Shown here: piece after piece, positions 11,836 through 20,000 of the stretch | How the letters are laid out: every line of letters begins with the position of its first letter | Numbering within the stretch: position 1 is the first letter of the stretch | DNA from: an uncultured virus (IMG/VR IMGVR_UViG_3300042306_000801) | Lineage: Duplodnaviria > Heunggongvirae > Uroviricota > Caudoviricetes | IMG/VR virus record: IMGVR_UViG_3300042306_000801 | Length of the DNA: 20,000 bases | Strand: one strand, 5' to 3' | Made by a program: the position numbers and the translations under genes | The notes under the pieces: model-generated | What the model saw: only the letters and a program-made list of their open reading frames with translations | The model's database searches: none | What the model was told of the DNA's origin: nothing

Positions 11836-12429
11836 ATGCCAGATAGGTTACGATATTTAGTAGGCGGTACAATCGCAGCATCCGATATAAATACGGAATT
11901 CAACAGAGGTGGATATTTTAGTATATGGGACGCTAGAAATGGCAATTATGGTGCTATAAATGATGCAAGTAGTTATAGACCAACTGCTAACGGACAAAGT
12001 GGATACGAATTTAATGATTGGTGGGGATATACTCATAGTGCAAGTAGACCATACGTTTACATCTTCAAATATGAAGCACAAGCAAGTTGTAGTATAAGAT
12101 TATATAAGTGGAATGTATATGGTGGAACTGAATGGAGTGAACGATGGTATTTCTACAATATAGGTCCTTGGCACGATGCATCCGGTGGCGGTGATGGAAA
12201 TAATAGCCCCGCTGCTCCGGCTAGAATGGATGATAGAATAAGTTTTTATTGGTACACGTTTGGTTGGGGCAATATGTCAAAAACTACTTATAAAGCAGTA
12301 TATAGTAATGTTAGAGGAAATATAATTTACTATGGATGTGATGCCGTTTCAAATGCAAGATACGCCGAAGTAAATCCAATATGGAGTGGTGAATCTTTAT
12401 ATTGCTATTCTGTGGAAAACTACTGTTAA
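11836..12429 (+). CDS. hypothetical protein, possibly virion-associated
   Basis: Tyr/Trp/Gly/Asn-rich; N-terminal GTIAASDINTEF motif reminiscent of phage fibre-associated proteins. Confidence 0.65.
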   Translation: MPDRLRYLVGGTIAASDINTEFNRGGYFSIWDARNGNYGAINDASSYRPTANGQSGYEFNDWWGYTHSASRPYVYIFKYEAQASCSIRLYKWNVYGGTEWSERWYFYNIGPWHDASGGGDGNNSPAAPARMDDRISFYWYTFGWGNMSKTTYKAVYSNVRGNIIYYGCDAVSNARYAEVNPIWSGESLYCYSVENYC

Positions 12430-12448
12430 AAACTTTAATTAATATATT

Positions 12449-12724
12449 ATGAAAACTTATGTTCTAACTGGCGAAAGCCATATGTGCTTTGATGACGAAG
12501 AAAAAACCTTAATTTCAATTACCAATTCATCTAGAATTGACAATTCTTCTATTGCATACACAAAAGACCCTCTAGCATTTAGAGCGGTATATGACCACGC
12601 AATGTCTGAAATATCCGGTAGTGATAGACCGGTTGGTGGAATCCCATTATTTCAACCCGATACGGAAGAAATGTTCAATTCGGTAAGAGAACTGGTACTT
12701 AATAAGTTTAACGCTTTAATTTAA
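12449..12724 (+). CDS. hypothetical protein
   Basis: 91-aa ORF following the previous gene. Confidence 0.7.
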   Translation: MKTYVLTGESHMCFDDEEKTLISITNSSRIDNSSIAYTKDPLAFRAVYDHAMSEISGSDRPVGGIPLFQPDTEEMFNSVRELVLNKFNALI

Positions 12725-12731
12725 AAATAAA

Positions 12732-12763
12732 TTTGGTAGTTTCATATCTTTTTTGTATATTTG
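12732..12763 (+). promoter_or_regulatory. Bacteroidota-type promoter
   Basis: TTTG (12732) + 20 nt + TATATTTG (12756). Confidence 0.8.
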
Positions 12764-12820
12764 TATATACTTATAAATTCTTATGTATATAAGTCATTGA
12801 TAATGAGGCATTTATAAAAG

Positions 12821-12829
12821 TTATCCACA
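12821..12829 (+). promoter_or_regulatory. perfect DnaA box
   Basis: TTATCCACA in a non-coding AT-rich gap; single copy, function uncertain. Confidence 0.4.
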
Positions 12830-12843
12830 TTTTGAAAAATAAA

Positions 12844-12875
12844 TTTGGAAATTTGAAAAAGGTTTCGTATCTTTA
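12844..12875 (+). promoter_or_regulatory. Bacteroidota-type promoter for initiator tRNA
   Basis: TTTG (12844) + 20 nt + TATCTTTA (12868). Confidence 0.8.
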
Positions 12876-12898
12876 CATCGTTCTTTTAAATAATACAT

Positions 12899-12970
12899 CG
12901 TGAGGTAGAGCAGTGGTAGCTCGCCAGGCTCATAACCTGGAGGCCGGTGGTTCGAATCCATCCCTCGCAA
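12899..12970 (+). tRNA. tRNA-fMet (CAT)
   Basis: Cloverleaf, CCAGG-CTCATAA-CCTGG, C1:A72 mismatch typical of initiators. Confidence 0.92.
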
Positions 12971-12972
12971 CA

Positions 12973-13072
12973 AAATCTATAATAGTGGTATCTGATACTG
13001 ACAGCTCTTTGGGAGTGATGGGTGTGAAAGCAGATTGAAAAGGGTACAACCCAACCCCATTATAATAGATTT
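12973..13072 (+). ncRNA. unknown structured RNA
   Basis: 16-nt closing stem 12973-12988/13057-13072 (one mismatch, one G-U); internal ATCTG/CAGAT helix. Confidence 0.55.
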
Positions 13073-13081
13073 AAAAAAAGA

Positions 13082-13113
13082 TTTGGTAGTTTGAAAAAAC
13101 TTTCGTATCTTTA
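13082..13113 (+). promoter_or_regulatory. Bacteroidota-type promoter (repeat copy)
   Basis: TTTG + 20 nt + TATCTTTA. Confidence 0.8.
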
Positions 13114-13115
13114 AC

Positions 13116-13200
13116 AAAGTTAAGGTTGAAGCCAACAATAATAAAACCGATTGTGTGAGGGGCTCAAGCTCCGAAGAAAGCCGGATACCTTAATAACTTT
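13116..13200 (+). ncRNA. unknown small structured RNA
   Basis: Starts just after the promoter; closing stem AAAGTT-AAGGT / ACCTT-AAT-AACTTT; inner hairpins ACAAT/ATTGT and GGGGC-TCAA-GCTCC. Confidence 0.5.
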
Positions 13201-13210
13201 TAAAAAAAGA

Positions 13211-13242
13211 TTTGGTAGTTTGAAAAAATTATCGTATCTTTA
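13211..13242 (+). promoter_or_regulatory. Bacteroidota-type promoter (repeat copy)
   Basis: TTTG + 20 nt + TATCTTTA. Confidence 0.8.
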
Positions 13243-13303
13243 TAAAGATTCAAAAATAAAGTAGTTGATTGGTTTGACCAGAAAACAAAATTGAGAATCT
13301 TTA
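13243..13303 (+). ncRNA. unknown small hairpin RNA
   Basis: TAAAGATTC (13243-13251) / GAATCTTTA (13295-13303) closing stem. Confidence 0.4.
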
Positions 13304-13311
13304 AAAATAAA

Positions 13312-13343
13312 TTTGGTAGTTTGAAAAAGGTTTCGTATCTTTA
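13312..13343 (+). promoter_or_regulatory. Bacteroidota-type promoter for the large ncRNA
   Basis: TTTG + 20 nt + TATCTTTA. Confidence 0.8.
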
Positions 13344-13361
13344 TAAAGTTAGCAAATAACA

Positions 13362-13379
13362 AAGTTCTTTACATTATTG
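13362..13379 (+). promoter_or_regulatory. boxA-like antitermination element
   Basis: AAGTTCTTTACATTATTG, resembling rrn boxA (GYTCTTT core), between promoter and large RNA. Confidence 0.55.
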
Positions 13380-13420
13380 AAATAATTTACACATAATAAC
13401 TTCGTGTTATATAGTGTACA

Positions 13421-14256
13421 AAATGGCCGCCTATGGTCATTAAATAAACTACGAAAGTAGGATAAAGTGAAATGTTTGGTTAAGCATTTTGCGGTTCATA
13501 TCCCTGTAAGGTTATGAGCTTGAGTAGGCAAGTGAGATATCATTTGGGCTTTGTATGTGAGGGTAACACTGTAGCAGAAGAGTTTGGGTGACTGAGCAAT
13601 TGTAGATTGTTCAGTTGAGTTCGGAAGAACGATAAGAATAACTCATAGGATTATTGTAAGAAATAGAAAGCTAATCCCTTTTTATTATTGCGTGATTCAA
13701 TACCAAAGTGGTCTTGACAATCAAGCTATCCGAAAGGACGTAAGATAAGACTGTGTACGGGTGGTGCCGTTACTATCCTTTAATATGGGACACCAATCCC
13801 TATTAATGAAGATGACTTGAAGTATGGCGTTGAGATAACGCATCGGGTAGTATAGTATTCTGTTCTTCAAAAGGGGACAGAGCTAGTGGTGAACCGCTAC
13901 CTGAATCCATCTACGAACCAAAACTTTTATCAAATGCGGATTTGATTATTCAATTATAAATAAAAGCAAAAGTGTTCATCAGTTGTGACCGAAAGGTGCA
14001 TACATAGTTGGGAGTTGTTCCCAGCCACAAACGCCCGCAAGGCGAATGTGATATCTACGAAAAGCTTATAGACCCGCAAGGTTTAATCAGTTCGGCAGGA
14101 TTGAATAAGGGGAGTAATAGGTGAGTAAGTTACAACTTTAAGAGTGGTTAATCTATAATAACCTGCATTGACTGGTACATCTCAAAAGGGTGTGGAAACG
14201 AAAGGAAACAAAATAATCTTTCTAAAGCTAGTTATCCCAACGTATATTCTCAGCGT
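13421..14256 (+). ncRNA. giant structured ncRNA, GOLLD-like
   Basis: ~835 nt with no ORF in the track, GC-richer than the flanks, many helices capped by GAAA/GCAA/GTAA loops; size and tRNA-flanked phage context fit GOLLD; ends approximate. Confidence 0.75.
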
Positions 14257-14261
14257 TTTTA

Positions 14262-14305
14262 CTTTCTCAATGGTTGCATATTGGTTCGATTCCAATAGAG
14301 AGAGC
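14262..14305 (+). ncRNA. minimal tRNA-like element (acceptor stem plus T arm)
   Basis: CTTTCTC-N10-TATTGG-TTCGATT-CCAATA-GAGAGAG. Confidence 0.6.
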
Positions 14306-14362
14306 TACTAACAACTGAAAGGTTGTTCGTTTCATATCTTAATTTTTATTACAACTTGAAAA

Positions 14363-14386
14363 GGGGGGCATAGCAATATGTTCCCC
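14363..14386. terminator. strong hairpin, possible terminator or 3' end structure
   Basis: GGGGGGCATA-GCAA-TATGTTCCCC; weak U-tract on the + strand. Confidence 0.45.
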
Positions 14387-14457
14387 AATTTAAGCCTGAT
14401 AAAACTAACAAAGATTCGGAAAATAAAATTATTATATACTTATATAAACAAACAGTG

Positions 14458-14619
14458 ATGAAAACTTTAACACTACATACAAATTGTTCGCAACCTACAT
14501 TGAGAAATGAGTGGGCAGGCATTCGTATGTTTAGTACGTTAAGTAATCCGGCAAACTTACAATTAGGCAAGGTGGATTATATTAGTACGAAGCAGTTAGA
14601 GGACACTGATGTTGGGTAA
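14458..14619 (+). CDS. putative leader peptide of the tRNA array (53 aa, not in ORF track)
   Basis: MKTLTLHTNCSQPTLRNEWAGIRMFSTLSNPANLQLGKVDYISTKQLEDTDVG; contains all 20 amino acids; followed by a terminator. Confidence 0.65.
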   Translation: MKTLTLHTNCSQPTLRNEWAGIRMFSTLSNPANLQLGKVDYISTKQLEDTDVG

Positions 14620-14656
14620 TTACATAACTTAACTTAAATAGAAAGACCTCTAACTG
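14593..14656 (+). promoter_or_regulatory. putative antiterminator helix
   Basis: CAGTTAGAGG (14593-14602, inside the leader ORF) is the exact reverse complement of CCTCTAACTG (14647-14656, terminator 5' arm). Confidence 0.65.
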
Positions 14657-14680
14657 AATAAAATCGGTTAGAGGTTTTTT
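14644..14680 (+). terminator. intrinsic terminator immediately upstream of the tRNA array
   Basis: AGACCTCTAACTGA-ATAAAA-TCGGTTAGAGGTTT followed by more Ts. Confidence 0.85.
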
Positions 14681-14688
14681 CGTTTTAA

Positions 14689-14760
14689 GCTCCTTTGGCG
14701 CAGCGGTAGCGCAGCAGACTGTTAATCTGTTGGTCCTTGGTTCGAATCCAAGAGGGAGCG
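14689..14760 (+). tRNA. tRNA-Asn (GTT)
   Basis: Cloverleaf; GCAGA-CTGTTAA-TCTGT. Confidence 0.95.
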
Positions 14761-14767
14761 CAAGATT

Positions 14768-14785
14768 AAGTTCTTTGACATATTG
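14768..14785 (+). promoter_or_regulatory. boxA-like antitermination element
   Basis: AAGTTCTTTGACATATTG. Confidence 0.6.
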
Positions 14786-14793
14786 GATAAGTA

Positions 14794-14868
14794 GGAAGTT
14801 TAGCTCAGTTGGTTTAGAGCATCACGTTTACACCGTGAGGGTCATAGGTTCGAATCCTGTAACTTCCA
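14794..14868 (+). tRNA. tRNA-Val (TAC)
   Basis: Cloverleaf; TCACG-TTTACAC-CGTGA. Confidence 0.95.
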
Positions 14869-14874
14869 CAACAT

Positions 14875-14968
14875 GTTCCATACACATTCCTACAATCTCT
14901 CAGTTGAAAGCTGTTGTAGGATTGAGTGAGTAGCACGATAGGGCTATCAAATGTGAGTTATATGGAAC
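14875..14968 (+). ncRNA. unknown multi-stem RNA between tRNAs
   Basis: GTTCCATA/TATGGAAC, CACATT/AATGTG, TCCTACAA/TTGTAGGA, GATAG/CTATC. Confidence 0.6.
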
Positions 14969-14973
14969 GCCAT

Positions 14974-15055
14974 TGGGGTATCGCATAGTGGCAATTGCGG
15001 CTGACTGTAAATCAGCTCTCATTTGAGTTCGGCGGTTCGAGTCCGTCTACCCCAA
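14974..15055 (+). tRNA. tRNA-Tyr (GTA)
   Basis: GCTGA-CTGTAAA-TCAGC with long variable arm. Confidence 0.94.
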
Positions 15056-15059
15056 CACT

Positions 15060-15132
15060 GGTGATGAAGCTAACTAGGTAGAAGCGAAAGACTGAAAATC
15101 TTTAGGAAGTGGTTCGATACCACTCATTACCA
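15060..15132 (+). tRNA. tRNA-Phe (GAA)
   Basis: AAAGA-CTGAAAA-TCTTT. Confidence 0.92.
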
Positions 15133-15153
15133 CTTAACAATTAAAAAACAATT

Positions 15154-15363
15154 ATGGCAGATTTTAATCATGGAGTTGGTACATTAATAAAAGAGTTAGT
15201 GACACCAAAAGGAAAAATTGAAGTGGGTAGCAAAGGAGTAATTACCGCATATCTACCAGAAGATGGTAAGTTCGCAGTAGATTTTGGAAATGGACAATGG
15301 ATAACGTTTGATAAAATATCATTGGACGAATATTGTAAAATAGAATTAGAAGATAACAATTAA
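15154..15363 (+). CDS. small hypothetical protein (possible SH3-like beta barrel) within the tRNA array
   Basis: 69 aa; IEVGSKGVI...FAVDFG pattern. Confidence 0.7.
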   Translation: MADFNHGVGTLIKELVTPKGKIEVGSKGVITAYLPEDGKFAVDFGNGQWITFDKISLDEYCKIELEDNN

Positions 15364-15403
15364 AAACAAATACTATGGAAAGTGACAAGTATGACAAAAG
15401 TCA

Positions 15404-15477
15404 GACCTCTTAGCTCAGTTGGTTAGAGCACTATACTTTTAATATAGGAGTCAATGGTTCGAATCCATTAGGGGTCA
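15404..15477 (+). tRNA. tRNA-Lys (TTT)
   Basis: CTATA-CTTTTAA-TATAG. Confidence 0.95.
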
Positions 15478-15552
15478 CAAAAAGTTCCGAACTTAATATT
15501 GAGTTAAAATAATGATGTACACATTATACGATAGGATGGAAACCTATCACAT

Positions 15553-15626
15553 TGGGAATTAGCGTAGTCAGGTATCGCGCTAGCTTTGGGAGCTAGAGGC
15601 CGTAGGTTCGAATCCTGCATTCCCAA
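15553..15626 (+). tRNA. tRNA-Pro (TGG)
   Basis: CTAGC-TTTGGGA-GCTAG. Confidence 0.94.
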
Positions 15627-15674
15627 CCGAGATGGTTCGCACTACACAGCATTGGGAAATAGGAAGTGCAAAAT

Positions 15675-15748
15675 TGGAATATAGCTCAATTGGTTAGAGC
15701 GCCGCTCTGATACGGCGGAAGTTGAAAGTTCGAGTCTTTCTATTCCAA
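15675..15748 (+). tRNA. tRNA-Ile (GAT)
   Basis: CCGCT-CTGATAC-GGCGG. Confidence 0.94.
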
Positions 15749-15753
15749 CACAC

Positions 15754-15824
15754 ATCTCCTTGGTGTAATGGTAACATGCCGCTCTCCAAAAGCGTTGATT
15801 GCAGTTCGAGTCTGTAAGGGGGTG
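15754..15824 (+). tRNA. tRNA-Trp (CCA)
   Basis: CCGCT-CTCCAAA-AGCGT. Confidence 0.9.
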
Positions 15825-15830
15825 CATAAT

Positions 15831-15903
15831 GGCTCTTTGGTGTAATGGATTAGCACACGAAGCTACGGACTTCGGAGTATGGGTTCGAATCCTTTAGGGG
15901 CTA
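15831..15903 (+). tRNA. tRNA-Arg (ACG)
   Basis: CGAAG-CTACGGA-CTTCG. Confidence 0.93.
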
Positions 15904-15911
15904 CATAATAA

Positions 15912-15982
15912 GGCGAGTTGTTAGAGTGGTGATATGAAGTTCTGCAAAAACTTTTACACAGGTTCGAATCCTGTACTCGCCT
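15912..15982 (+). tRNA. tRNA-Cys (GCA)
   Basis: AAGTT-CTGCAAA-AACTT; U73 discriminator. Confidence 0.92.
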
Positions 15983-15990
15983 CGGCAAAG

Positions 15991-16049
15991 GATAAAGGAG
16001 TATCGCCTAACGTAAGAGTTGGGAAGGTGGTTCGATTCCACATTTTATT
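15991..16049 (+). ncRNA. D-armless tRNA-like element or tRNA pseudogene
   Basis: ATAAAG/TTTTAT acceptor-like stem, CCTAAC-GTAAGA-GTTGGG hairpin, GTGG-TTCGATT-CCAC T arm. Confidence 0.5.
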
Positions 16050-16117
16050 GTGGGGAGATTAGGTAATCCGTTTGGTCTCATAAGCCAGATATTCAGGTTC
16101 GATTCCTGGCCCCGCAA
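16049..16117 (+). tRNA. tRNA-Met (CAT), short D arm
   Basis: TGTGGGG/CCCCGCA acceptor; TTGGT-CTCATAA-GCCAG. Confidence 0.85.
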
Positions 16118-16123
16118 CAATAT

Positions 16124-16198
16124 GGTGTTTGAAGCATTAAGGTGATGCGCTAGTTTGTGGAGCTAGATAAGACGGTTCGATACCGTCCTTACACCCCA
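16124..16198 (+). tRNA. tRNA-His (GTG)
   Basis: G-1:C73, encoded CCA, CTAGT-TTGTGGA-GCTAG; two U-U mismatches in the acceptor stem. Confidence 0.9.
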
Positions 16199-16200
16199 AC

Positions 16201-16289
16201 GGAGAATTGCCCGAGTGGACGATGGGGCCGGTTTGCTAAACCGTTGTACGATGAAAGTTGTACCGTTGGTTCGAATCCAACATTCTCCG
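16201..16289 (+). tRNA. tRNA-Ser (GCT)
   Basis: CCGGT-TTGCTAA-ACCGT, long variable arm, G73. Confidence 0.94.
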
Positions 16290-16305
16290 CATTAAATTGG
16301 ACATT

Positions 16306-16446
16306 ATGAAAAATGATAAGTTTGAAATTAATAGAAGAAGTAATAAGTTATACCGAATAAGAAAAATAATAAGAGAAAACGGAGCTTGTATGATATGTAT
16401 AAGACGTTTGAAAGGTGGTATAAAAAAATATAAAACCTATTGTTAA
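16306..16446 (+). CDS. small basic hypothetical protein (46 aa)
   Basis: ATG 16306 (the track start at 16258 lies inside tRNA-Ser); K/R-rich with CMIC. Confidence 0.45.
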   Translation: MKNDKFEINRRSNKLYRIRKIIRENGACMICIRRLKGGIKKYKTYC

Positions 16447-16452
16447 AATAGA

Positions 16453-16484
16453 TTTGGTTATATCAGATATTATTCGTATATTTG
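16453..16484 (+). promoter_or_regulatory. Bacteroidota-type promoter within the tRNA array
   Basis: TTTG + 20 nt + TATATTTG. Confidence 0.85.
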
Positions 16485-16502
16485 TATAACATTAACATTA
16501 AC

Positions 16503-16574
16503 GCTCTGTTCGACTAAGGGTTAGGTCACATCCCTTTCACGGATGTAATACGGGTTCGAATCCCGTACAGAGTA
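16503..16574 (+). tRNA. tRNA-Glu (TTC)
   Basis: CATCC-CTTTCAC-GGATG. Confidence 0.95.
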
Positions 16575-16581
16575 CAAAGGT

Positions 16582-16667
16582 TGATTGGGATAAGCATATT
16601 AGTATGCATAAATCGGTTAGAAATGCCAATCATAAAAGTAGATGTCCACGCACCCATCTTCTACTTT
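16582..16667 (+). ncRNA. unknown structured spacer RNA
   Basis: TGATTGG/CCAATCA enclosing a GCATA/TATGC hairpin, then AAAGTAG/CTACTTT hairpin. Confidence 0.5.
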
Positions 16668-16674
16668 CCTAAAC

Positions 16675-16748
16675 GCTTCCTTAGCTCAGCAGGCCAGAGC
16701 ACCTCACTTGTAATGAGGGGGTCGTCAGTTCGATTCTGACAGGAAGCT
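16675..16748 (+). tRNA. tRNA-Thr (TGT)
   Basis: CCTCA-CTTGTAA-TGAGG. Confidence 0.95.
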
Positions 16749-16823
16749 CAAACTAATTTATTGAGGACTTTGTCAACCTACGCATGACGTGGTGGTGCAA
16801 TTTAAGATGAGTTGGTTTCAAAT

Positions 16824-16894
16824 GGAGAGTTAGTTAATCGGTATAATGCTGCCTTGTCACGGCAGTGTGACGGGTTCGATTCCCGTACTTTCCG
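16824..16894 (+). tRNA. tRNA-Asp (GTC)
   Basis: CTGCC-TTGTCAC-GGCAG; G73. Confidence 0.94.
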
Positions 16895-16896
16895 CA

Positions 16897-17060
16897 AGTT
16901 GTTCTATTCTTTTAGCACACCTAACTATAAGGTAAGTAACATAGAATAGCATAGATGCTTGGGTAGCTCCCATCGGCAACATTCGGACTACAAATGTGAT
17001 TAAGTTCAGACGTTGTAGAGAAAGAGATGTTAAAGGATAACCTTGCAAGTTAGAACAACT
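16897..17060 (+). ncRNA. unknown ~164-nt structured RNA
   Basis: Perfect 10-bp closing stem AGTTGTTCTA/TAGAACAACT; nested AAGGT/ACCTT, TAACAT/ATGTTA, GATG/CATC, CTACAA/TTGTAG. Confidence 0.6.
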
Positions 17061-17064
17061 ACTT

Positions 17065-17139
17065 GGGCCCATAGTTAAAGGGATATAACAAAAGATTTCT
17101 AATCTTTTATTCGTGGTTCGAGTCCACGTGGGCCTACCA
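17065..17139 (+). tRNA. tRNA-Arg (TCT)
   Basis: AAAGA-TTTCTAA-TCTTT; encoded CCA. Confidence 0.95.
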
Positions 17140-17154
17140 AATAAAAAATAAGTT

Positions 17155-17604
17155 ATGAGAAAAGTTATTCTTTTATTCTTAACTGTTATTATGTTTATTC
17201 CGCATAATATGATTAACTCCGAAATGAGTGAGGAAGAAGTTGCGGACATAATGATAGAAAAGAAAAAGATACCTTATGATGTAGTTACGGTTACAACATA
17301 TACGGTATCAAAAGGCGAAACTGATTCAACTCCACTAATTACCGCAAGTGGTTATAAGTTGGATAGTTTAAATCCTAAAAAGCAAAAGGTAATTGCAATT
17401 AGTAGAGACTTAAAACGAAAGTATAAGTTTGGACAAAAGGTAAGAGTGAAGGGTGCTGGAAAATTAGATGGGGTTTATACTGTCAGAGATTTGATGGCAA
17501 AGAGGTGGACAAAAAAGATTGATATATTAATTAATCCAGATGAAAGTGGAACTAAAATCAGAAGGGTTAAAATATATAATATAAAAAAGGATTTGGATAA
17601 TTAA
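17155..17604 (+). CDS. 3D-domain (MltA-like) cell-wall protein with signal peptide
   Basis: VTVTTY...TDSTPLITASG...IAISRDL...FGQKVRV...VRD...IDILI: three conserved Asp. Confidence 0.85.
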   Translation: MRKVILLFLTVIMFIPHNMINSEMSEEEVADIMIEKKKIPYDVVTVTTYTVSKGETDSTPLITASGYKLDSLNPKKQKVIAISRDLKRKYKFGQKVRVKGAGKLDGVYTVRDLMAKRWTKKIDILINPDESGTKIRRVKIYNIKKDLDN

Positions 17605-17623
17605 ATTATTATTCGTATCTTTG
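17592..17623 (+). promoter_or_regulatory. Bacteroidota-type promoter within the tRNA array
   Basis: TTTG + 20 nt + TATCTTTG. Confidence 0.85.
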
Positions 17624-17648
17624 TATAGTTATTAAAAATAGTATCGCC

Positions 17649-17733
17649 GCCGATGTGGTGTAATGGCAGCCACGAGAGACTTAAAATCTCTTGAACCGAA
17701 GGGTTCGTGCCGGTTCGAGTCCGGCCATCGGTA
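17649..17733 (+). tRNA. tRNA-Leu (TAA)
   Basis: AGAGA-CTTAAAA-TCTCT, long variable arm. Confidence 0.94.
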
Positions 17734-17744
17734 CGTTCAATTAA

Positions 17745-17818
17745 GGGGAAGTAGCTCAGTTGGCTAGAGCACCTGCCTTGCACGCAGGGGGTCATGGGTT
17801 CGAATCCCTTCTTCTCCA
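17745..17818 (+). tRNA. tRNA-Ala (TGC)
   Basis: CCTGC-CTTGCAC-GCAGG; G3:U70. Confidence 0.96.
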
Positions 17819-17822
17819 CATC

Positions 17823-17896
17823 GGACTTGTAGCTCACTCGGTTAGAGCGGCACACTCATAATGTGAAGGTAATAGGTTCGATTCCTATCTGGTCCA
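17823..17896 (+). tRNA. tRNA (CAT), probably Ile2 (lysidine) rather than Met
   Basis: GCACA-CTCATAA-TGTGA; body resembles Ile2 tRNAs; identity is inferred. Confidence 0.85.
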
Positions 17897-17903
17897 CAAA
17901 CAA

Positions 17904-17979
17904 GCGGAAGTAGCTCATTTGGTAGAGCATGACCTTGCCAAGGTCAGGGTGGCCAGTTCGAGCCTGGTCTTCCGCTCCA
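17904..17979 (+). tRNA. tRNA-Gly (GCC)
   Basis: TGACC-TTGCCAA-GGTCA; U73, encoded CCA. Confidence 0.96.
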
Positions 17980-18034
17980 AAGCAGATAAAACGTGTAGTA
18001 ACTGCAGGAATGATATCTTCCACTACACTCTTTA

Positions 18035-18107
18035 GCGAGAGTAGCTCATTTGGTAGAGCGGTAGCCTTCCAAGCTTCAGGTGGCCAGTTCGAGCCTGGTC
18101 TCTCGCT
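18035..18107 (+). tRNA. tRNA-Gly (TCC)
   Basis: GTAGC-CTTCCAA-GCTTC; U73. Confidence 0.93.
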
Positions 18108-18165
18108 CAAGTGGGCCTGTTAGTATTAGGCCGCAAGAAGAATAGATGTTTTTCAATTACTAAAA

Positions 18166-18238
18166 CTCAAGTACCCATACCGCTAGCGATGGGCTAAGTA
18201 AGATACAATTTCGCACTGCGGGAAGTAGAATGCTTGAG
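18166..18238 (+). ncRNA. unknown three-way-junction RNA
   Basis: CTCAAGTA/TGCTTGAG, CCCAT/ATGGG, TTTCGC/GCGGGA. Confidence 0.55.
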
Positions 18239-18243
18239 ATTAT

Positions 18244-18315
18244 TGCCCGATGATGTAATGGTTAGCATCACAGATTTTGATTCTGTTCGTATTGGTTCGA
18301 GTCCAGTTCGGGTAA
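18244..18315 (+). tRNA. tRNA-Gln (TTG)
   Basis: ACAGA-TTTTGAT-TCTGT; U1-A72. Confidence 0.93.
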
Positions 18316-18334
18316 CTCATTAAAAACAAATGTT

Positions 18335-18604
18335 ATGGGAATTTTTTGGACTTATTATTTGATTTGTTTGGCGTATTGTTTATATATGTCATTCAAAAAA
18401 TGGAATAGAGATATGATGGCAGGTGGATTAGGCATTTCGCCTGGTTTAGATACATTGGCTCTATTACTTATGTGTTGGATATTAGCACCAGTAGATATAT
18501 TCTTAACTTGGGTTAGGGTATATAAAGAAGCTGAAGAAGCTAGAAGAAAACATGCTGATACTGAAAATAGTTTAGACGGTAAAAGCGAAGAAAAAGTATT
18601 CTAA
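18335..18604 (+). CDS. hypothetical membrane protein
   Basis: 89 aa with two hydrophobic segments. Confidence 0.7.
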   Translation: MGIFWTYYLICLAYCLYMSFKKWNRDMMAGGLGISPGLDTLALLLMCWILAPVDIFLTWVRVYKEAEEARRKHADTENSLDGKSEEKVF

Positions 18605-18621
18605 TTATTAGAGTACTAAAC

Positions 18622-18706
18622 GGAGAAATGGCAGAGTGGTTGAATGCACCGGTCTTGAAAACCGGCAACTGTAACAGGTTCTGGGGTTCGAATCCCTGTT
18701 TCTCCG
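18622..18706 (+). tRNA. tRNA-Ser (TGA)
   Basis: CCGGT-CTTGAAA-ACCGG, long variable arm. Confidence 0.95.
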
Positions 18707-18713
18707 CAAAAAT

Positions 18714-18884
18714 TGTTAGATGGTGAAATTGGTTATCTATGTTATAACCTGGCAAACACACCCACTCGTCTCGTGGGCGAGGATAAAGAAATAGAAAAGT
18801 AATATGGGGTTGACCACCAGCTTGCAAGCACTAAATGTTACTTTTTGAATCTCCTCTTGTATGGTTCGAATCCTACTCTAACAG
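18714..18884 (+). ncRNA. oversized tRNA-like RNA (171 nt)
   Basis: TGTTAGA/TCTAACA acceptor, D arm with inserted hairpin, CCCAC-TCGTCTC-GTGGG, ~80-nt variable arm, GGTTCGAATCC T loop. Confidence 0.75.
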
Positions 18885-18897
18885 CATACTTATTGTT

Positions 18898-19446
18898 ATG
18901 AACGTTATATTATTTGTTGCATTAGAAAATGAGTTTCCAAAGGAAAAAGCACCAGCTGGTGTTAAAGTTGTTTATACTGGCGTTGGAAAAGTAAATGCAG
19001 CTATAAGAGCAACCGAAACTCTTAAAGATTTAGACCCTAAAGATGTGACCGTTATAAACTATGGAAGTGCGGGTGGACATGCCAATATGGTTGGTAGTTT
19101 ATTTAAGTGTAAAACATTTGTCCAAAATGATATGGACGCCAGACCATTTGCAGATAAAACAATCACACCATTTGATAATGAAATAGTAATGGGTAATATT
19201 GATTTCAATGGATTGGGATATAATATATGTTATACACAAGACCATTTTCAAACCACACCATCTGTAATATGTGATATGGAAGCATACTCAATTGCAAAGG
19301 TATGTAAGATTTATGGATTTGATTTTACTGCATACAAATATGTAAGTGATAGCGGTAATCCGGATGATTGGGAAGCTAATCACAACAAAGGAATTGAATT
19401 ATTTTTAAAATCATTACAAAAATATGCCCTGATGGTGGAACGGTAG
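18898..19446 (+). CDS. MTA/SAH nucleosidase family (PNP_UDP_1)
   Basis: ALENE, TGVGKVNAA, INYGSAG, CDMEAYSIA, KYVSD; start moved to ATG 18898 because 18835 lies in the tRNA-like RNA. Confidence 0.9.
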   Translation: MNVILFVALENEFPKEKAPAGVKVVYTGVGKVNAAIRATETLKDLDPKDVTVINYGSAGGHANMVGSLFKCKTFVQNDMDARPFADKTITPFDNEIVMGNIDFNGLGYNICYTQDHFQTTPSVICDMEAYSIAKVCKIYGFDFTAYKYVSDSGNPDDWEANHNKGIELFLKSLQKYALMVER

Positions 19447-19506
19447 ACACATCAGTTTTAGGAACTGATATCGAGAGGTGTGAGAGTTCGAATCTCTCTT
19501 GGGGCA
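19426..19506 (+). tRNA. tRNA-Leu (TAG)
   Basis: TCAGT-TTTAGGA-ACTGA, variable arm; overlaps the nucleosidase stop. Confidence 0.93.
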
Positions 19507-19522
19507 CAAACAACTTAATAAT

Positions 19523-20000
19523 ATGATAGTATTTTTTAAAGATTATAAACGAACTGATAGAACTTATTTATCGGTTCAATCGGTGAGACATCTTTTTCCT
19601 AATATTGATATAAGATGTCTTTTTTTATATGATAATGATATAAGCGAATACATTCAATACATACCAAAGTTTTTAGAATTAGGAGTATCAATTTATTTTG
19701 ATAAGAAGAAATGGAATTTTGGAAATACATCTGCAGCAGGTTCTACATTAAATGGATTTTACTTTACCGAAGGTATAAATAAAATACAGGCTCTAACTAG
19801 AGAATATGATAAAGTTCTAATATTAGATGAAGATTCATTTTTTACAAGCGGTGAAACAATTAGATTTCTTTTAGATAATACATTTGATTTAGCATGTGGA
19901 GATTGGCCCGCACCACCATGGCCTCCAATTGCATATGCAAGTAGACCATCGTATGAAGTTAATGCATGTACACTTGCAATAAATCCTAAAAAATTAAATC
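19523..20000 (+). CDS. putative GT-A glycosyltransferase (partial, runs off the window)
   Basis: Open frame MIVFFKDYKR...SVQSVRHLFP...YDKVLILDEDSFF with a DxD motif after a hydrophobic strand. Confidence 0.65.
   Translation, partial: MIVFFKDYKRTDRTYLSVQSVRHLFPNIDIRCLFLYDNDISEYIQYIPKFLELGVSIYFDKKKWNFGNTSAAGSTLNGFYFTEGINKIQALTREYDKVLILDEDSFFTSGETIRFLLDNTFDLACGDWPAPPWPPIAYASRPSYEVNACTLAINPKKLN

Follow-up and report, generated by a model that had tools for sequence, protein, structure and literature searches.

The 20,000-nucleotide (nt) DNA of the uncultured virus IMG/VR IMGVR_UViG_3300042306_000801, referred to here as the window, is AT-rich (35% G+C) and phage-like, and carries a 53-codon open reading frame (ORF), the leader, ahead of a strong terminator and an array of transfer RNA (tRNA) genes. 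This leader and the RNA around it are probably a ribosome-mediated leader-peptide attenuator through which a shortage of any aminoacyl-tRNA would open the tRNA array. The anatomy of the element, its conservation and covariation among relatives, the compensation of lost amino acids and the geometry of the ribosome on the leader were computed and are presented below. The original prediction, which had proposed a tRNA-shortage-sensing attenuator at this site from a leader, an antiterminator and a terminator, included neither the GOLLD RNA that lies upstream nor a further RNA segment in codons 3-5, with which the element becomes a full four-segment attenuator. The parts of the predicted switch are as follows.

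14458..14619, + strand: leader ORF (ATG at 14458, TAA at 14617-14619; 53 sense codons, all 20 amino acids)
14465..14471, + strand: segment 1 (CTTTAAC, codons 3-5), which pairs with segment 2; anti-antiterminator
14593..14602, + strand: segment 2 (CAGTTAGAGG, codons 46-49), 5' strand of the antiterminator, with the stop codon 14 nt past its end
14647..14656, + strand: segment 3 (CCTCTAACTG), common to the antiterminator (2:3) and the terminator (3:4)
14665..14674, + strand: segment 4 (CGGTTAGAGG), 3' arm of the terminator
14645..14680, + strand: intrinsic terminator (hairpin 14647-14674 followed by TTTTTT); ends 8 nt before tRNA-Asn (14689)

In the proposed mechanism, transcription would most likely start from the promoter motif at 13312 and proceed through GOLLD into the leader, whose transcript could adopt three mutually exclusive pairings: 1:2, 2:3 (the antiterminator) and 3:4 (the terminator). 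With no ribosome loaded, 1:2 and 3:4 would form and transcription would stop. Smooth translation as far as the stop codon, which lies 14 nt beyond segment 2, would leave segment 2 occupied or blocked, so that 3:4 would again form and stop transcription. A ribosome stalled in codons 2 to about 41 for want of charged or intact tRNA would leave segment 2 free to pair with the nascent segment 3; no terminator would then form, and the polymerase would enter the tRNA genes. Since the leader contains every amino acid and codons for 24 tRNA species, shortage of almost any aminoacyl-tRNA could be sensed; it would lead to more phage tRNA, which in turn would return the switch to its closed state. Translation of the ORF, the step from stalling to read-through and the natural trigger are inferences, and anticodon nucleases (PrrC, PARIS) may be one source of tRNA shortage.

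The leader reading frame and its amino acids

Searched with the leader peptide, viral contigs gave 12 loci and later 15, metagenome contigs 80 of 91 confirmed loci and genome contigs one locus; 74 protein clusters were also retrieved. Dereplication left 63 distinct DNA sequences whose flanks were long enough, and 122 distinct complete peptides. Three loci outside the start-motif set (L075, L076 and L104) were examined separately and yielded two more peptides with all 20 amino acids and the same switch. The leader family belongs to uncultured lake phages. Cultured relatives name no host, because a DNA search against cultured phages returned similarity in GOLLD and tRNAs only, with no close relative, and a protein search with a 426-amino-acid ORF returned only distant jumbo-phage ATPases. 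The sole match in prokaryote genome bins (L110), a 1.6-kb contig filed under a Cyanobium metagenome-assembled genome, carries a complete leader of 39 codons; the contig is too short for naming a host and is probably a mis-binned phage fragment.

The leader ATG is invariant among the 63 DNA sequences, and the frame is free of stop codons in all of them; the other five frames are each interrupted by stops in every sequence. Insertions and deletions preserve the frame, and segment 2 is separated from the stop codon by 14 nt (47 sequences), 17 nt (13) or 11 nt (three). Entropies of 0.57, 0.63 and 0.76 for the first, second and third codon positions show that third positions are the most variable. 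These features show that the leader ORF is a real, constrained reading frame, and it is presumably translated. Gene callers list it as a hypothetical protein, searches of Pfam and PHROGs with the leader peptide found no family, and ten aligned members share 46-98% identity. Two further motifs are kept in divergent relatives: TATACTTAT at 14435-14443, 15 nt 5' of the ATG, and AAACTAAC farther upstream at 14402-14409. Neither is enriched in the window, and they are only putative promoter or RNA elements.

The composition of the leader is as originally described. All 20 amino acids occur within the first 41 codons, with Tyr the last to be reached, at codon 41; 33 of the 53 sense codons are distinct; and the seven GC-ending codons that had been singled out in this AT-rich genome (TCG, ACG, CCG, GGC, GGG, CAG and GAC) are all found, with a G+C content at third positions of 0.36 in the leader, versus 0.25 for a set of 20 long ORFs on the window's + strand. 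Taken by itself, this composition is only mildly unusual. The presence of all 20 amino acids in 53 residues has a probability of about 0.05 in random peptides of phage composition and was found in 744 of 23172 windows of real proteins, and 33 or more distinct codons occur with a probability of about 0.05 in 53-codon windows of the phage's own ORFs.

The relatives put completeness beyond chance. All 20 amino acids are kept in 118 of the 122 distinct peptides, whereas 5000 column shuffles gave 71.7 complete peptides on average and 86 at most; these shuffles, like the Fisher tests that were used, ignore shared ancestry, and their p-values are too small. Where the usual copy of a rare residue is lost, another is generally found elsewhere in the same peptide:

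Cys: usual copy lost, another elsewhere in 31 of 32 (at five columns); usual copy kept with a second copy in 24 of 90
Tyr: usual copy lost, another elsewhere in 13 of 14; usual copy kept with a second copy in 5 of 108
Internal Met: usual copy lost, another elsewhere in 8 of 9; usual copy kept with a second copy in 10 of 113

As the alternative Cys lies at five different columns, compensation occurred repeatedly, shared ancestry notwithstanding. The internal Met, present in 121 of the 122 peptides, is the leader's only test of elongator tRNA-Met. A short class of leaders, with 38-41 codons, has lost 12-15 codons, including those for the usual Tyr and Asp, and is still complete. Five distinct sequences of this class have all 20 amino acids within the first 28 codons, which has a probability of about 9e-5 in random peptides and was found in none of 27222 windows of real proteins. 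The amino-acid diversity that the original prediction had proposed to test in relatives is therefore conserved and, beyond that, compensated. In L014 and L015, one further small ORF with all 20 amino acids (41 residues, MGIVKWYH...) was seen among 245 six-frame ORFs of 38-54 residues.

The codons of the leader also correspond to the tRNAs of the phage. The window's leader has cognate codons for all 24 of the phage tRNA species; 3000 null draws covered 18.1 species on average and 22 at most. Among 12 long loci, this coverage is full in six.

The proposed RNA switch and the position of the ribosome

Segment 2 (14593-14602) is the exact reverse complement of segment 3 (14647-14656), and the terminator of which segment 3 is part consists of an 11-base-pair (bp) hairpin (6-nt loop, -15.1 kcal/mol) and a TTTTTT tract whose last T, at 14680, is 8 nt from the first tRNA. 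Both had been claimed in the original prediction, and both hold. The terminator hairpin and its T run are found in all 63 sequences, with stabilities of -9.3 to -16.4 kcal/mol, and the antiterminator covaries with the terminator arm as had been expected. In the 8-bp core of the 2:3 helix, 97.6% of 504 cells are paired, and compensatory changes are seen at three pairs (U-A in 47 sequences, C-G in 11 and U-G in five; A-U in 44 and G-C in 17; G-C in 45 and U-A in eight), with G-U pairs as intermediates. The covariation score and paired share were reached by none of 500 shuffles, slid controls were 23-61% paired, and the covariation was also seen on a second alignment.

In the 1:2 helix, 80.4% of the cells are paired and two pairs have compensatory changes; at least seven contiguous base pairs are found in 59 of the 63 sequences, against 7% of random 24-nt windows. 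Where segment 3 has a G, segment 2 mostly has a C and segment 4 a U. Segments 2 and 4 thus solve the pairing with segment 3 differently (C-G and U-G) and are not mere copies of each other. In addition, the nucleotides of segment 1 are kept where a shift of 1 nt turns the peptide KTLTL into KNFNL. The C-G/U-G difference and the persistence of segment 1 argue for selection on the RNA itself. An internal hairpin, TAATCC/GGATTA (14544-14579), is 89.6% paired and shows no covariation. The outer helix CAGTG/CACTG of the minimum free energy (MFE) fold was rejected, as it is not conserved in alignment A1. At E<=1, Rfam gave only a sub-threshold match to NsiR1 at the terminator hairpin.

An ordinary small-protein gene could be read from part of this evidence. 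Under such an account, the terminator would be constitutive and would also end GOLLD, the tRNAs would be transcribed by leaky read-through or from an unrecognised promoter, and the complete amino-acid set would simply have been inherited. A 53-residue peptide is complete by chance in about 3-5% of cases, and the identity among the aligned members, the hypothetical-protein calls and the conserved TATACTTAT ahead of the ATG would all suit a gene of this kind. It leaves unexplained, however, the three-way covariation of segments 1, 2 and 3, the compensated relocation of rare residues, the completeness of the forms with 38-41 codons and the fixed distance between segment 2 and the stop codon. The peptide belongs to no Pfam or PHROG family, and in two relatives (L094 and L101) the gap from the end of GOLLD to the leader ATG is only 38 nt. 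This account is very unlikely.

An attenuator further requires that a stalled ribosome and a finishing ribosome act differently on segment 2, and the attenuator reading is consistent with the geometry of the leader in this respect. Among 60 complete leaders, 56 reach the 20th amino acid at least three codons (mostly four) before the start of segment 2. The window's leader was folded with a ribosome-sized mask, the size of the footprint being taken from general knowledge. The masked folds permitted the 2:3 helix when the A-site was at codons 10, 20, 30 and 41, and blocked it from codon 46 onward and at the stop codon. The stability of 2:3 (-18.8 kcal/mol) is near that of 3:4 (-22.5 kcal/mol). 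In unmasked folds, the MFE structure of the full leader consists of 1:2 and the terminator, and an RNA ending at segment 3 prefers 2:3.

The same switch might instead sense general translation capacity or the coupling of transcription and translation (ribosome availability, elongation speed or ribosome-targeting stress), with the complete amino-acid set a side effect of an "average" message. Segment 1 lies 7 nt past the start codon, so that ribosome loading alone would free segment 2, and single scattered codons give weak amino-acid specificity; attenuators that answer general antibiotic stalling have been reported (PMC9226507, PMC4191407). An average message, however, needs no rare residues, yet lost Cys, Tyr and internal Met reappear elsewhere in the peptide. 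Completeness is also packed 5' of segment 2, and for Leu, Arg, Ser and Gly the leader of the window has codons for both isoacceptors. A general sensor of this kind is therefore judged unlikely.

The tRNA array, GOLLD RNA and transcription layout

The window has 26 tRNA genes on the + strand, 25 of which form the array at 14689-19507; together they serve all 20 amino acids with 24 anticodon species. The features that define the transcription of this region are listed below.

13312..13342, + strand: nearest upstream promoter motif (TTTGG-N-TTCGTATCTTT), the likely start of the GOLLD-leader-tRNA unit
13843..14256, + strand: conserved 3' domain of GOLLD RNA (RF02032, 305.5 bits; gathering score 150)
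14238..14309, + strand: degenerate tRNA-like remnant (uncertain), with a T-arm-like GGTTCGATTCC, between GOLLD and the leader
14689..16290, + strand: 13 tRNA genes, from Asn to Ser-GCT, in a block that lacks a promoter motif of its own and would be the direct target of read-through
16453..16483, + strand: internal promoter motif of the array, from the motif scan
17592..17622, + strand: second internal promoter motif of the array, from the motif scan
19587..19626, + strand: terminator-like hairpin and T run after the last tRNA, weak (-7.5 kcal/mol), the likely end of the array unit

The phage promoter motif, TTTGG...TTCGTAT[A/C]TTT, is of a Bacteroidota type. Its core, TTTGG...[CT]GTAT[AC]TTT, has 10 + strand copies among 13 matches to a relaxed pattern: five in tandem in 12732-13342, and others at 1789, 5666, 10856, 16453 and 17592. 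The motif scan found no copy between 13312 and 16453, and hence none between the terminator and tRNA-Asn, in agreement with what had been predicted. A terminator scan of the + strand from 12400 to 19990 gave the strong terminator at 14647, the weak one at 19587 and a doubtful hairpin at 14298. With no promoter motif in 13312-16453 and terminators only at 14647 and 19587, GOLLD, the leader, the terminator and the 13 tRNA genes appear to be one unit that is split by the terminator. The original prediction had cautioned that internal promoters at 16453 and 17592 may confine direct control to the first 13 tRNAs. Both promoter motifs are present; the limit itself need not hold, as no other strong + strand terminator occurs until 19587, and read-through could run through the whole array.

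The relatives have the same layout. Across 16 long loci, the distance from the closest upstream motif to the leader ATG is 1116-1760 nt and that from the ATG to the next motif 1655-3220 nt, with 11-15 tRNA genes between the leader and this next motif. A tRNA is found downstream of the leader in 58 of 59 relatives with enough flank, and it is tRNA-Asn in 57; the T run and the start of the tRNA are 4-12 nt apart in 56 of 58 relatives. The combination of short ORF, terminator and tRNA genes that the original prediction had proposed to seek in related phages is thus found.

Several other features of the region were observed. One of the five tandem promoters (12732-13342, about 600 nt) drives tRNA-Met (12899-12971), and downstream of the others are stretches of 60-100 nt that contain no ORF, match no known RNA family and could be small RNAs. 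Within the array, the ORF at 17155-17604 matches PHROG 21574 (unknown function), and the ORFs at 18335-18604 and 18835-19446 have no match. In L017, L023 and L024, ARAGORN reports a tRNA-Ser with anticodon ACT in place of the window's GCT; an A34 anticodon is unusual.

The conserved domain of GOLLD listed above is preceded by a variable 5' domain that reaches upstream toward about 13350-13430, and the leader lies outside the GOLLD model. GOLLD is found 5' of the leader in all 30 relatives scanned. In Acinetobacter phage Herod and in LR756502, a tRNA directly follows GOLLD and the leader was not found; the leader is therefore not a general GOLLD accessory and belongs to the present phage family. 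An ARAGORN tRNA with an odd anticodon loop or Gly-ACC occupies the site equivalent to the tRNA-like remnant (-220 to -149 from the ATG) in L014, L015 and L021. The remnant in the window has no ARAGORN call and no Rfam tRNA match at E<=1, and it could mark a processing site that forms the GOLLD 3' end. In some relatives (L005, L009, L010 and L012, and also L017 and L023-L026), a transfer-messenger RNA (tmRNA) gene lies 1.7-2.3 kb upstream of the leader, with the phage tmRNA tag DEKSTMTY(D/N)DLMAFVGMDYAVAA in most and DEMSTMTYNDLMAFVGMDYAVAA in L026; tmRNA, tRNA-Met and GOLLD adjoin there in an island of translation RNAs.

RNA-library data consisted of contigs from four freshwater metatranscriptome runs of four studies. 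Contigs over GOLLD cover 13430-14237. The leader occurs at low depth (14432-14588, 14462-14614 and 14465-14615), and a 434-nt contig of a relative spans 14563-14993, crossing the terminator into the tRNAs. The k-mer depth is in the thousands over GOLLD and 2-14 over the leader, depth being a poor measure of expression. Some bins of 14238-15300 are uncovered in some runs, which proves nothing. The contigs show only that such RNA-library sequence exists.

An element that acts as RNA only was also considered. Its helices would act in forming the 3' end, in processing or in folding of the GOLLD/tRNA precursor, or would bind a factor or a tRNA in the manner of a T-box, and the ORF would be untranslated. 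The unit that the leader shares with GOLLD in those 30 loci, the stability of the fold (z of -4.4 compared to shuffles) and the end of the GOLLD contigs near 14237-14256, where the tRNA-like remnant begins, would fit such an element. One frame that stays open behind an invariant ATG in all 63 sequences is, however, not expected of an untranslated RNA, nor are in-frame insertions and deletions and 20 amino acids kept by compensation; moreover, Rfam at E<=1 has no family, T-box included, that matches the leader in 14257-14629. This is the least probable of the accounts considered. Compensation and covariation together argue against both the small-protein and the RNA-only explanations.

Weighing the attenuator reading, known systems and biological meaning

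Several observations weigh against the reading of the leader as a sensor of any aminoacyl-tRNA. First, completeness is not universal. Four of the 122 peptides are without one to three amino acids (the L009 type without Asp, the L092 type without Gln, P0037 without Cys, and P0072, with a frameshift-like tail, without Asp, Val and Tyr), and the internal Met is missing from one of the 122. Three short leaders reach the 20th amino acid within or after segment 2, and one more only two codons before it. Half of the 12 long loci leave one to three tRNA species uncovered. Second, the amino acids are mostly present as one to a few scattered codons, without runs. Runs of regulatory codons give classical attenuators their sensitivity, and because such runs are absent, mild starvation may elicit only a weak response. 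The mean column identity of 75% in alignment A2 means that the peptide itself may have a function. Third, the RNA pairings have exceptions, as the 2:3 helix of the L092 type has an A-C mismatch and the 1:2 helix is missing in four of 63 sequences (L020, L052, L072 and L074). In the ribosome-free equilibrium fold, 2:3 beats 1:2 once segment 3 exists, which makes the state without translation uncertain. Fourth, eleven tRNA species lie behind internal promoters and have no need of the switch, the start of transcription of the leader is a prediction from the motif, and RNA-library contigs cannot show ends, strand or levels and may include DNA.

Leader-peptide attenuation is familiar from amino-acid operons and a few others, and it usually reports one to three amino acids. 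The leaders of amino-acid operons include trpL, hisL, leuL and pheL, and the multivalent thrL and ilv leaders. The present element shares with the attenuators of amino-acid operons, for which see Elf and Ehrenberg (PMC1183508), a short leader ORF, the alternative 1:2, 2:3 and 3:4 pairings and an intrinsic terminator close ahead of the genes under control; its stop codon likewise lies where a ribosome that completes the peptide would block the antiterminator. A conserved ORF, a terminator, a covarying antiterminator, a 1:2 segment and the geometry of stalling and finishing are all found. It differs in three respects. First, it has no runs of a single codon and contains every amino acid at least once. 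Second, its targets are tRNA genes rather than biosynthetic enzymes, and it resides in a phage behind a GOLLD RNA. Third, segment 2 is upstream of the stop codon and not just after it.

Other regulatory leaders resemble the element in part. In the vmlR, bmrCD, msrD and erm leaders, a stalled leader ribosome is likewise reported to disable a terminator without specificity for one amino acid; those leaders depend on ribosome-bound drugs and particular peptide motifs, whereas the present leader keeps completeness. T-box riboswitches likewise respond to tRNA charging through an antiterminator/terminator switch, but they lack an ORF and each makes direct contact with a single tRNA, and the T-box model gave no match at E<=1 in 12700-14700. 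GOLLD itself, in the accessible part of Kretsch et al. (bioRxiv 10.1101/2024.12.08.627333), lies near phage tRNA islands, as does the window's copy, forms a 14-mer cage and was recovered in a ribosome pull-down; that part of the report mentions no downstream leader ORF or attenuator. A search of full-text literature, which did not cover subscription-only papers, found no paper on leader-peptide control of tRNA arrays. Leader-peptide attenuation is thus known hardware, and what appears to be new is the all-amino-acid leader and its tRNA targets.

A broader interpretation, offered tentatively, is that the locus is a decoding-capacity homeostat. A pan-aminoacyl-tRNA sensor of 38-54 codons would determine if the highly abundant GOLLD transcript terminates or continues into the phage's full tRNA set, and the loss of host tRNA through starvation, shut-off or anticodon-nuclease defence would switch on replacements. 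If true, this would be the first functional tie between GOLLD and translation, and it might explain the reported binding of GOLLD to ribosomes.

The leader family is a compact, well-defined element of roughly 230 nt. In it, the hardware of amino-acid-operon attenuators has apparently been rebuilt as a gauge of the entire aminoacyl-tRNA pool that controls tRNA genes, and GOLLD, a giant cage-forming RNA of unknown function, is placed in one unit with the sensor and the tRNA array. Such a switch would provide a testable link to host tRNA depletion and tRNA-cleaving defence systems, and it would explain how large phages could deploy full tRNA sets on demand.

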